In this document: piece by piece, positions 5,068 to 59,292 of the stretch
Position numbering within the stretch: the stretch's first letter is position 1
Layout of the letters: each line of letters opens with the position of its first letter
From: Lama glama
Lineage: Eukaryota
Assembly (NCBI GenBank): GCA_028534125.1
Contig: CM052817.1
Location: 97,464,001-97,528,000 of the forward strand
Length of the DNA stretch: 64,000 nucleotides
Direction: 5' to 3'
Program-made: the position numbers and the translations under genes
Notes under the pieces: model-generated
What the model was told of the DNA's origin: nothing
Seen by the model: the letters and a program-made list of their open reading frames with translations, nothing else
The model's database searches: none

Positions 5068-5165
5068 TTCTTTTCTTTTTTTTTTAATGGAGGTACTGGG
5101 GATGGAACCCAGGACCTCATGCATGCTAAGCATGTACTCTACCACTGAGCTATACCACCCCCTCC
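5068..5165 (-). mobile_element. tRNA-derived SINE (camelid Vic-1-like)
   Basis: Minus strand GGTATAGCTCAGTGGTAGAG (A box)...CCTGGGTTCCATCCCCAGTACC (B box), A-rich tail, imperfect TSD GAACACCTTCTT/GAATGCCTTCTT. Confidence 0.85.
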
Positions 5166-13896: not shown

Positions 13897-14030
13897 TTTT
13901 TCTTTTTAGCTTTTTTGGGGGGTAATTAGTTTTATTTACTTTATTTATTTTTAGAGGAGATACTAGGGATTGAACCCAGAACCTCCTGCATGGTAACCAT
14001 GCTCTCTACCACTTGAGCTATACCCTCCCC
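13897..14030 (-). mobile_element. tRNA-derived SINE (camelid Vic-1-like)
   Basis: GGGGAGGGTATAGCTCAAGTGGTAGAG...GGGTTCAATCCC; TSD CTACATCTGAC (13886-13896) / CTACACCTGAC (14031-14041). Confidence 0.9.
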
Positions 14031-19910: not shown

Positions 19911-21421
19911 CTAAATTCACTTACAGCCATCATGTAATTTTATTAATAAAATGAATATTTATTTTCTAAGTGGTTCTTTCCCATGTTCTTAAAACATTAC
20001 ATGGGGCCTCCAGAAGAGCTCTCACCACAGCTGAATATGCAGTGGGATCGTGGCTATGCCTGTGTCTAGCCTGGGTATTCCGAAGGATGAGAAGTTCCCA
20101 TTCTTGCTCTGACCATACACCCAAGACTCTGCCCTGACAGATTGAAGCGCTTAAAAAATGGTTGGTGAGTGGCAATCAGTCCTGAACACAGCTCGTACAT
20201 GACCTTGTCTATATTAGTACAGAAGAGTCCACGTCCAGTATGACCAGTCCCTGCCTCCTCTCTGTTTGGAGGGGCTCACACACTGGACCTGCAGTGCACC
20301 TTAATCTTACTTCATCAATGCAAGGCAACCCCATTTTTATTAGGATTAAGTGCTATTTCTATTGTGATAAAAGAGCCATGACATTGAATTTACTTTTAGC
20401 CATTTTTAAGTGTAAATTAGTACATTCACATTGTTGCACAACCATCACCACCATCCACCTCCAGAACTTTCGAGGAGTAACATGCATTGCTGTTTCAGAT
20501 TCCAGGGAGTTTAGTAAACAGAACTGGTACTTCATTTAGTTACTTCTGGGGAGCAGTGCATGCCTGTTTTAAAAATCTCCATGTTTTCTGTGTTGTACAG
20601 TCTCTCTTGGGCCAAGGACCAGGGAAGGGCACCCCCTTTTAAAGTCAAGCAACTGAAATAAACACTGTCTAAAAATAGTATGACAGGCAAACTTTTATCA
20701 TTCCTCATTGATGAAAAGCCTTATGTAACTCGGGCTTAGCATGCTCTCCATCAGTTACGTGCCTGGAAGAGGCTGACTGTGTAGGGACTCTGAGACAGTC
20801 ATTTCCCCCATTAGATAAAACATCGATTTCTTAAAAATTGTATCTACTTTCCTTAAAACCCTCATCGTACTAAATTTGATTATTTCTGCTACAGTAGAAT
20901 TGGCAAGAATCAAATTTCTTAAAAAAAGCATATTTCATCAGTGTTATGAAATCACAGAGGCTAGACCATGTTTGACACTTAAGATTTCTATTCTTTACTT
21001 CTTCCATTCTTGGGTACTGGCAACAAATTCATCCCTCAAAAAATGCACAGTTCATGCAATTATACCCTCTTACAAAAATCCTTGCCTTTTTAAATGAACA
21101 CTGGCTCAAAAATAGGGGGTCCCTGCTGATAGACATCGAAGAACCACCCATGGAGCTCATGTTTCAGAAGTCATGCACATGTAAGAGCTATCAGCTTTAG
21201 ATTTTCACCACGAAAGGTTGCTATGTTTGTATTTCTCCAGTTCTCAAAAAAAAAAAAAAAACAGTACTTAGGAGGGGAAAAGACTGCTGTTTTCACCTGA
21301 ATCATAGCAACCAAGTCCAAAATACAGGGTATATGTCAACAAAATTATCATATTTCTGCCACATACAGAAACTCAAAATGCTTCCAGAAGTCTCAAAGGA
21401 ATACTTCACAGGTACACTTAC

Positions 21422-21432
21422 CTCAACGGGGT
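21422..21432 (-). other. Candidate 11-nt stop-containing microexon in intron 2
   Basis: TTTTTTTTCCCTTCCTTTCTCTGTCATTTTCAG|ACCCCGTTGAG|GTAAGT; motif evidence only. Confidence 0.4.
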
Positions 21433-22934
21433 CTGAAAATGACAGAGAAAGGAAGGGAAAAAAAATACTTCGTATTGTAGGACCATAAATTCTTCAGTCA
21501 TACCTTAAAGCTTCCAAGAACAAAAGCCTCTCCGAACACAATTTCCATTTCAAAAACATAGTGACCATCCGAAGGGGAGGAAATAAAAGAACATCTGCTC
21601 CTCACCTCTCTACCCTCTCAAACGCTGCACTCAGAATCTCTTCTCGAACTTATCAGAAAAATATTTTTTAAGTAAATACAAACTCTACCACGGGACAGAG
21701 GAAAATAAGCATGTTTCCACTTCTGAAAAAGGCACTGTGAATTCAAACACCATTGACCTGAGGACATAATAAATGGACTATCAGACGAGCTGAGACTCCT
21801 CTGCTCCTCCACATCCTTGTATGTACGTCAGAATTCCATATGTCACCATTTCTAATTCATTTACATAATCTTTCACCGGTTTGCTTTCCAACTTAGTCAA
21901 ACCAGGAGCTGGCTCTTCTTGTTTCCATTTCCTGGGGATATTTTCCCCCTAGTCTAATAAAATGCATTCTCTTTTGGTATCAAAATGACCAGGTTGACCT
22001 TCATAACAAAACTCTTTTGCTCCTTTTAAAAGTCATGATGATGCTTCAATTTCCTCCTCGTTACTATAAAGCTGTGTCTTTTTTCCCTATACTCTTTGCA
22101 ACTCTTTTTGTAGGGCTGTTAATACACGTGGTTTGGTGGCACAGGGGGAAGAAACAGGCTTGAGGGCAGATAATCTGGCCTGCAATGACCTCTTCCCGTA
22201 AACCATCCAATACTTATCCCTTGTCTTCCGTTCCAGCCACTCAGCCTGAATTCCCAACATCATAGCCTCCCAACTGCTTTTTAAAGTTTCTGTCCCTGTT
22301 TCCTATCTCTCTTACCAGATTGACTTTTCTACCCTTTTATATTCTTTCCAGGTTTAAAAGAAAAATGTTTGCTAGTACTATGGTAAAAATGCCAAAGACT
22401 TCTTTTTAGTACTCAGATTCCTACAGTCTGGTGTTCCCCAGTTACCATTAACCCCATCCAAGCAGGCCTTGTTTGTCCTGTGCCCACACACGTGACCTGC
22501 GCCATTACTTCCTTCTGTAACACCTCTGCACTCCTCACCATACACCAGCAATCTACAAACATCAGCTGAAATCTCACCTCCTGTGTTCTAGCCCACATGA
22601 AACTTTTCCTTTTCTAATCTTTGGTAACTCTTCTTACTGCCTCACACAACCAAACATGTAATTAGGGAAAAACAACAACAACAGCAAAAAGGCTGTATAG
22701 ACTCATGTGAGTCCTCTCCCCCAGTGAGATGCGAATACCGGGGAGACGTCTGGTTTGCTTCCCATTCATTTGGTTTGTTCGCCCACGTTAAGAACACAGT
22801 AGGTGCTAAATAATTTGAGAGTTGCCTATTATTTTCCCCTCTGCCAACACAGAATTTACAAAGCTGTTTTGCTCTTAGGTCTAGGCCTTCCATCAAAAAG
22901 CTTATATTAAAATACACTGATAATGGAACTCAGA

Positions 22935-27226: not shown

Positions 27227-27337
27227 GGGGGGTGGGGAGTTAGGTTCTATTTATTTATTTAATTGAGGTCCTGGGGATTGAACCCAGGACCTCTGCATGC
27301 TAGGCACACACTCTACCATTGAGCTATACCCTCCCCC
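27227..27337 (-). mobile_element. tRNA-derived SINE (camelid Vic-1-like) abutting a short L1 3' fragment (~27172-27226)
   Basis: A and B boxes and AAAT-type tail on the minus strand. Confidence 0.85.
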
Positions 27338-32490: not shown

Positions 32491-33860
32491 AACCCACTAA
32501 AAGCATCACTTACAAAAACATCTCCATCATGTGCAAAATCTCCTTCTCTGAAAGTAAAACAAAGCGCCAGCAGCAGAACACATGCTGGGTTTGGTTCTGA
32601 TGAAAGCGATGCTATCTCCTGACTTGCTTTAAAAGAGTTTAGGATTTAAGAGCAGCAGTATTAGAATTGGATTGAATAGTTCACGCAATCGAGAACTGTA
32701 AGAACAAGTAAGTATCCTTTACGAAATGTGTGCTTTCAGAGTAAGGTTTGAATCAAAGGTGAGGAAAAGAAGGCACAAATGAGAGTTTTTACTTTTTGGT
32801 TCAGTAAAAAACAGGAGAAAGAATAAGGATTACACGTAAGCCTTACATCTTGCTACTGGGATGGACATTTTTCCCCTAAAATAAGTTTTCAAGGACAATA
32901 TCCACATATTCCTAGATGCACAAGTGAACTATATCTAGAAAATCTATTCTTTACATGTCCTATAAAGGGATCATTTATCATAACCATGTAATAAAAACAG
33001 TACTGAAGCAAAGTCCAATGCAAGTGTTCACTGTATAACTTGGAACCACCCTTTGTAGTCGTATCTACAACCTCTCCCTTGTTTTTTCTAAATACAGACA
33101 ATATGCTATCTGCAAGAAGGAAAAGCCAAGAGATATTTTAGAGGGAGTAAAGTATGTCTTCTTGCAGATCCTAAAAGTTACAAACAAATTAAAAACTGCA
33201 GTGATATACTTCACTTCCAATGAGTAAGAAAGTCAGATTGTCCACTTAGTAACTTCAGATGTGCTCAGTCTTTAAAAGCCCTTAAGAGTTAAGGAAATGA
33301 TTTATTTGTATTGAAAACCACAACTTACATACAATTAACCTACCTAGAAAAAGATGGAAAGGCTAGGGAGCTTCCGGGCAACAGACTCAGGGTTTAATTT
33401 CATTTTTCACAACCAATGAAGTGATTAATAGAGAAAACTAAGGAAAAAGAAGACTATGACCACAAAGAAAGCAATTTAAAGCAATTTTAGTGAACTAGTA
33501 TGCAGATAAAGAAAAAAAATCTAGCATTAGTCTGCTAAAGTAAACATAGTAACAGGCTGTAGAAAACAAACTTTTTCTAAACACCTACAACAGACAGTGT
33601 AGAGAGAGAAGTATATATTGATGCTCCTTCAAAATCAACACAAATATTTTGAGATTGTCAGGATTTTTTGTTTGTTTCTCTATTCCAAAAAAGCAGCAAC
33701 ATTTCAACAAGTAAAGGGCGAAGCACTAAACGACCATCGTGAAAGCAAAAATAAAACAGGAAACTGAAATGTATTCAAATTTATCAACTACAAAGATAAT
33801 TCGAAACTTCAGTGCTTTATAAAGCCATAGTTTTCAAGACAGGAGAAAAAGGCCAACTTA

Positions 33861-35621
<1,761 letters not shown>

Positions 35622-36719
35622 AGCTGACAAACAAATTGATATGAAAAAATTGAATTAGAGTCATTTATGGCAAGATTACTCTAACAGACATTCTAAAATT
35701 ACATTTACTGAGCTATAAATACATATTCTACTCATTATAAGCAATACTTCCAGTTTTATTAAAATTATTACCTTTTTAGGTGCTGACATAACAAGGCTAT
35801 TGACTATAACTGGTCCAGAAGCCAGAATGTAAGAAGCCATCATATAAAATTATCTTGCATCTAGATGACAGTAACATATTTGCTAAAATACAGCCTTTAG
35901 AATTTGCAAAGAATACTTACAAATGTTAACTTATGTAATATTTAGGGTAGTCTTGGGGGATAAATGAGGCAGGAAGGGAGGACACTGAGGACTTAGGTGG
36001 GCGACTTGCCCAAGGTCAAAAGCATAACAAATGACAGAGTCAGGTTTAAAACTAAATCTTCTAACTCACTCCAAGCCATCGGAATCTTTCAAGCATATGG
36101 AAGCTGCTTTCCATATCTAATACATGATTTTATTAAAAACAACAGGGAAATGCAATTAATGTTAGTTACCATTTCCCAAAATAAAGTTATCAAGTGAATT
36201 ATCACGAGAAAAATAACTTGGGAGTTATTTCTAAAACAACATGGTTTTCTTAAACTGGGTTAGTGATGGAAATAATTTAATGTCAATTCTGCAAAGTGAA
36301 GATTCATATAGCCTGATTAATTAAGGCGGTTCATAGCTCAGAGAGGCTATAGGACAACCGGACAATGTCAAGATTCTAGTCTGTATTTCAGTACTGGGAA
36401 GGACTCTGCCATGCAGCCTCAGCTCAGTTGTACCTCTGCTAAAAAGACTCCCAACAGTATCATACACAACAGTTAACGGAGGAAGTTTGACATGGGTCCT
36501 AACAATTTATGTGTTCACTCATTCAACAAATATTTACCAAGTGTGTGCTACATCCTGGGCCTAAGACGAGTCACCAAATCTATGATGATAAACAAAACAG
36601 GCACTGTCTCCAACCTCAGGTCGCCTGCACGGTTGTTTTAGATATACAATCATATCCATTGGCTCTCTATATAAATTTATTTCATAGATAGAATAATTAT
36701 AATCGGCTATATTTATAAT

Positions 36720-59121: not shown

Positions 59122-59292
59122 GGGGAGGAGGAAGGTAGAGCTAGCTCAGTGGTAGAGCATATGCTTAGCATGCATGAGTGCCTGGGTTCAGTCCCCAGTA
59201 CTTCCATTGTAAAACAGATAAATACATAAATAAATAAACCTAATTACCTCACTCCCCCCAATAAAAAGCATAAACAAAAACAAGTTTGTGTT
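59122..59292 (+). mobile_element. tRNA-derived SINE (camelid Vic-1-like)
   Basis: TAGCTCAGTGGTAGAG...GGGTTCAGTCCCC; perfect 15-bp TSD AACAATACTATTTCT at 59107-59121 and 59293-59307. Confidence 0.92.

Follow-up and report, generated by a model that had tools for sequence, protein, structure and literature searches.

An 11-nt microexon look-alike in intron 2 of NR3C2 is probably a silent pseudo-microexon

We describe an 11-nt element in intron 2 of NR3C2 that is probably a silent pseudo-microexon: an acceptor-like and a donor-like site paired by chance and ignored by the spliceosome. A canonical acceptor and a canonical donor are present on the sense strand of the intron. This sense-strand intronic position and the great strength of the signals make a real exon more likely; the non-triplet length, the absent branch motif, class counts at the level of controls and a silent mouse table make it less so. 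The weights attached here to this reading and to its rivals are judgements.

Position and sequence of the element

The window analyzed, a stretch of 64,000 nt from Lama glama, includes the first part of NR3C2 (minus strand), with the N-terminal domain (NTD) of MR contained in a 598-codon open stretch (35654-33861). Exon 2, which encodes this domain (33862-35623, minus strand; 1762 nt), comprises 1760 nt from the ATG to its end, that is, 586 codons plus 2 nt, and ends in phase 2. It is 3 nt longer than the 1759-nt exon-2 circles of human and mouse (PMC8355340), equivalent to one extra NTD codon. A search of 200 kb of adjoining DNA of the same genome identified exons 3 (140 nt) and 4 (117 nt). 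The location of exon 3 confirms phase 2 and gives intron 2 a length of 153,233 nt. The candidate follows the end of exon 2 at a distance of 12,429 nt, so that it lies 12.4 kb into the intron and its flanking introns would measure 12.4 kb and 141 kb.

Read on the minus strand, a polypyrimidine tract that starts with a T run (21436-21465; 28 of 30 positions C or T) leads into a CAG acceptor-like site (21433-21435), the 11-nt candidate itself (21422-21432; not a multiple of 3) and a GTAAGT donor-like site (GAG/GTAAGT; 21416-21421), the first intron base of which is 21421. All of these are as the first-pass annotation had described them. The acceptor-like site scores 11.8 bits, compared with 5.6, 11.0 and 14.5 bits for the real acceptors of exons 2, 3 and 4, and the donor-like site, at 11.9 bits, is the fourth strongest donor in intron 2. 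Both thus score similarly to real NR3C2 sites, on approximate PWMs based on human splice-site frequencies rather than on MaxEntScan or SpliceAI. The phase and the frame upon inclusion were likewise as claimed: AGA CCC CGT TGA encodes R-P-R-stop, the TGA (21423-21425, minus strand) overlapping the exonic part of the donor. The predicted product of 589 aa (586 + 3) rests on exon length because 212 positions within exon 2 are N.

SRRM4-dependent neural microexons are 3-27 nt in length, typically preserve the reading frame and combine an upstream UGC with weak splice sites. The candidate shares their size, but its length is not a multiple of 3, its sites are strong and, in agreement with the first-pass annotation, no UGC occurs within 40 nt upstream of the acceptor.

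A 261-nt query with common words skipped gave a single match in the same genome, that is, no second copy, and there was neither a self-match of the element in 464 kb nor a tandem repeat in 21341-22400. The proposal that this is apparently non-repeat DNA holds as far as second copies and tandem repeats are concerned; the element may still derive from an old repeat. Folding of 161 nt around the element revealed no special RNA structure (z = +1.0), and no Rfam family matched at the element. Elsewhere in the window there are four tRNA-like Rfam matches of 31-63 bits (5088-5159, 13955-14027, 27264-27333 and 59135-59202), three of them inside intron 2, which are probably heads of tRNA-derived SINEs.

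Frequency of comparable site pairs

In the 464 kb made up of the window and neighboring DNA of the same genome (G000:C2:97064001-97528000), the candidate ranks first among 131 acceptor-donor pairs spaced 3-30 nt apart on the gene strand, and in no other pair do both sites reach 11.8 bits. The opposite strand of the same region holds a pair of higher summed score (24.8, compared with 23.7 for the candidate). Pairs of equal summed score are expected at 0.09 per intron 2 under a Markov model of order 2, at 0.40 under order 5 and at 0.27 under a rotation null. About 0.03 pairs with both sites as strong are expected per intron 2, and 0.002 for the most tailored description, which was set post hoc after the site had been seen. 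The apparent rarity of the candidate thus varies (0.002-0.40 per intron 2) because the statistic chosen differs. Locally, the pair is unusual.

Genome-wide, the pattern YYYYCAG, 11 nt, GTAAGT with an RAG exon end matched 78 times, compared with 67 matches of the reversed control (binomial p = 0.41). Sixty of the other 77 matches, the first ones listed, were retrieved for comparison. Among the resulting 61 sites, the candidate ranks third in acceptor strength, two of the 60 look-alikes having a stronger acceptor, and its tract is the most pyrimidine-rich, with no equal among the 60. A stricter class, of which the candidate is a member (12 Y, 4 N, 4 Y, CAG, 3-27 nt, RAG/GTAAGT), yielded seven matches in the genome and seven in the reversed control. 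Exchanging donor and acceptor, which defines an impossibly short intron, gave nine matches and four in its own reversed control. Match lengths show that three of the seven strict-class sites are multiples of 3; the other six sites, of 18-27 nt, are G000:C12:56336231, C14:18075439, C23:40651980, C28:20978072, C34:16288543 and C294378:7342. Chance yields roughly 4-12 strict-class sites per genome.

The positive control was weak, the strict pattern at 103-127 nt giving 14 matches compared with 12 in the control, and the pattern test therefore fixes the chance level with little power against a real share. With this weak positive control, consensus-like sites are as frequent as chance supplies, as expected of pseudoexons. 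A 12-nt version of the pattern gave 101 matches compared with 46; many of these rows are duplicates on small contigs, and the excess was set aside as evidence.

Transcript evidence and catalogues

Positions 21350-21620 (271 nt), compared with the RNA contigs of four runs, matched one contig, unspliced and present in one of the four. It derives from a close relative (95-99% alike; depth 3.2) and leaves the splice sites unchanged. Away from the contig ends it has no listed substitutions, and its two small indels (21457 and 21471), which could be errors, fall in the tract/branch zone. Contig matching of this kind cannot show inclusion because the 11-nt exon shares no 31-letter word with the spliced form, and the contig is no gauge of constraint because the relative is so close. 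A degenerate 23-nt pattern had no matches in metagenome contigs, a search that had no positive control and is uninformative for mammals.

A mouse MicroExonator table (PMC7821500; 2,988 rows, 289 datasets) has no row for four of five Nr3c2 transcript ids, and none at the Nr3c2 exon-2 end coordinate given in PMC8355340, the same assembly being assumed. Look-ups in mouse or human tables presuppose a site orthologous to the candidate. In published work we found nothing relevant on an NR3C2 microexon, on a poison, cryptic or novel intron-2 exon, or on unproductive splicing of the gene. The MR variant tables of PMC7616738, as far as available, list no intron-2 variant, and guessed coordinate prefixes had no match in the novel-exon file of PMC8355340.

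The two sites might also be used singly. The donor could pair with an upstream acceptor to form a 301- or 336-nt cryptic exon, back-splice to exon 2 or mark a transient intermediate in removal of the long intron. Upstream of the donor there are indeed acceptors of 8.1 bits (301 nt away) and 9.9 bits (336 nt away), and circles of exon 2 occur in the brain of both human and mouse (PMC8355340, supplement file 13). However, the exon-2 circles among the matches listed in that file end exactly at exon 2, the sole matching RNA contig is unspliced, and a zero-length recursive splice site is ruled out since the acceptor AG is followed by AC and not by GT (AG/AC). We regard single-site use in any of these forms as very improbable.

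Nine strong AG/GT junctions occur in intron 2. One of them (window position 33343, minus strand), approximately 520 nt into the intron, resembles a recursive site (acceptor 12.3 bits, donor 8.8 bits); it also reads as 11- and 15-nt pseudo-microexons. Another, at G000:C2:97384294, outside the window and near three quarters along the 153-kb intron, has the strongest donor of intron 2 (CAG/GTAAGT, 12.9 bits; acceptor 9.5 bits). Judged by sequence, it would be a better candidate for recursive splicing than the 11-nt element.

Branch point and regulatory motifs

No TnA branch motif is present at -45 to -15 of the candidate acceptor. Exons 2, 3 and 4 have four to six each in this interval, and 55 of 61 intronic AGs with strong tracts have at least one; a long, pure pyrimidine tract holds few adenines by construction, which bears on this count. 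The sole branch-like yTnAy motif within 80 nt (21485-21489, minus strand) places its A at -54, and the nearest upstream AG (21468-21469, minus strand; -37) lies between this motif and the acceptor. Consensus thus identifies no branch point 18-40 nt upstream, where a non-consensus branch point is possible.

Downstream of the candidate there are two copies of the RBFOX-type motif TGCATG on the minus strand, at +245 (21172-21177) and +364 (21053-21058). TGCATG was one of four motifs tried, neither copy is within 100 nt of the candidate, and two copies occur in 0.8% of the 400-nt windows of intron 2. In the surroundings of the element they are the sole feature that speaks for its use. These motifs bring to mind an undescribed, regulated poison microexon, the inclusion of which would be promoted by downstream-bound RBFOX in brain, heart or muscle, leading to NMD and a fall in MR dose. 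Such an exon would fit the two TGCATG copies and the very strong signals on the sense strand, as well as the splice sites unchanged in the contig of the close relative. In addition, RBFOX-regulated micro-exons have longer flanking introns and as many as 22% of alternative micro-exons may introduce stops (PMC4317164), and MR is dose-sensitive (PMC2779785). According to the same survey, however, RBFOX-regulated micro-exons have weaker splice sites, unlike the candidate (PMC4317164). The distance of the motifs, the class count equal to controls, the lack of any entry in the mouse microexon table or the literature on NR3C2, and the location of both listed indels of the relative's contig, possible errors as they are, in the tract/branch zone further argue against it. 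We thus consider an RBFOX-dependent poison exon distinctly unlikely. If it were true, blocking the exon with an antisense oligonucleotide would raise MR, and forcing its inclusion would lower MR.

Consequence of inclusion

The first-pass annotation had singled out the element's own in-frame stop. This feature proved ordinary: 16 of 60 same-pattern sites carry a phase-2 stop, which is commonplace because the stop overlaps the exonic bases of the donor. The stop adds no evidence either, because a frameshifting insert without it would in any case stop 66 or 95 nt into exon 3.

Upon inclusion, translation would end at codon 590, with approximately 141 nt left before the exon 3/4 junction. The distance from the premature stop to a later junction thus exceeds 50-55 nt, as is the case for frameshifting inserts at this location generally. 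No mutant mRNA was detectable from a human MR allele with a nonsense mutation at codon 590 (PMC2779785, citing Geller et al.); the same source also describes another MR PTC transcript, lacking exon 7, that persisted and partly escaped NMD. An NTD-only protein, as had been suggested earlier, is unlikely because of the position of the stop and the undetectable mRNA of the codon-590 allele (PMC2779785). Decay of the mRNA is expected instead if the 11-nt exon is included.

It is conceivable, though rather unlikely, that such decay takes place at a low level, and that the element is a lineage-restricted cryptic exon with low, unregulated inclusion, degraded by NMD and amounting to splicing noise without effect on MR dose. 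Both sites match those of real NR3C2 exons in strength, and, given strong intronic signals, even a constitutive, non-triplet exon of 4 nt can be defined (PMC9929638). In PMC7821500, the clusters of mouse microexons termed 'excluded' contain fewer in-frame events, as would fit a frameshifting exon of this kind, but they are an imperfect model because their splice sites are the weakest. The absence of a TnA motif at -45 to -15 also speaks against a noisy exon, and the RNA contigs gave no sign of inclusion, with the qualification that contigs cannot show an 11-nt junction.

Discussion

Under the silent pseudo-microexon that we favor, the spliceosome would ignore a chance acceptor/donor pair in a 153-kb intron. 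Skipping is inferred from several features: at 11 nt the element is too small to be defined as an exon without help, the introns on either side would be long (12.4 kb and 141 kb), and there is neither a TnA branch motif at -45 to -15 nor a UGC. Any rare inclusion would be cleared by NMD, leaving the usual splice of exon 2 to exon 3. For every real exon there may be ten pseudoexons (PMC1935003), and exons of 51 nt or less tend toward skipping, constitutive micro-exons having short flanking introns and short exons meeting a steric limit (PMC4317164).

Intronic pseudoexons, or decoy pairs, are 50-200 nt in length by the definition given in PMC1935003, whereas the candidate has 11 nt and unusually strong signals. 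It is similar to the 17-nt NFKB1 micro-exon (PMC4317164) in that it is short, non-triplet, located early in the gene and predicted to trigger NMD. The NFKB1 micro-exon, however, is backed by junction reads, and its splice sites are conserved across mammals (PMC4317164); for the candidate, the evidence is its sequence. Known MR variants (In12/MR+4, delta5, delta5,6, delta6 and del10; PMC7616738, Tables 1-4) resemble the candidate in that splicing alters or truncates MR. Unlike the candidate, all variants in these tables retain the DBD and map to exon 3 or further downstream, and none has an intron-2 exon.

If real and regulated, the element would provide a so far undescribed post-transcriptional control over the dose of a dose-sensitive salt and stress hormone receptor. 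As a real exon it would be a possible site of deep-intronic variants, and still a new member of the well-known class of poison exons. If silent, it belongs to the ordinary background of introns, and striking microexon look-alikes will need a genome-wide control for chance.

A short pattern identified seven copies of a recurring repeat in the 464-kb region, for example at C2:97356838, 97205786 and 97105244, each consisting of a T-rich tract ending in AG, 9 nt, and GTAAGTG or ATAAGTG. Four of the seven have the GT form. The repeat resembles the antisense 3' end of LINE-1. It readily supplies 9-nt, in-frame pseudo-microexons and can mislead scans.
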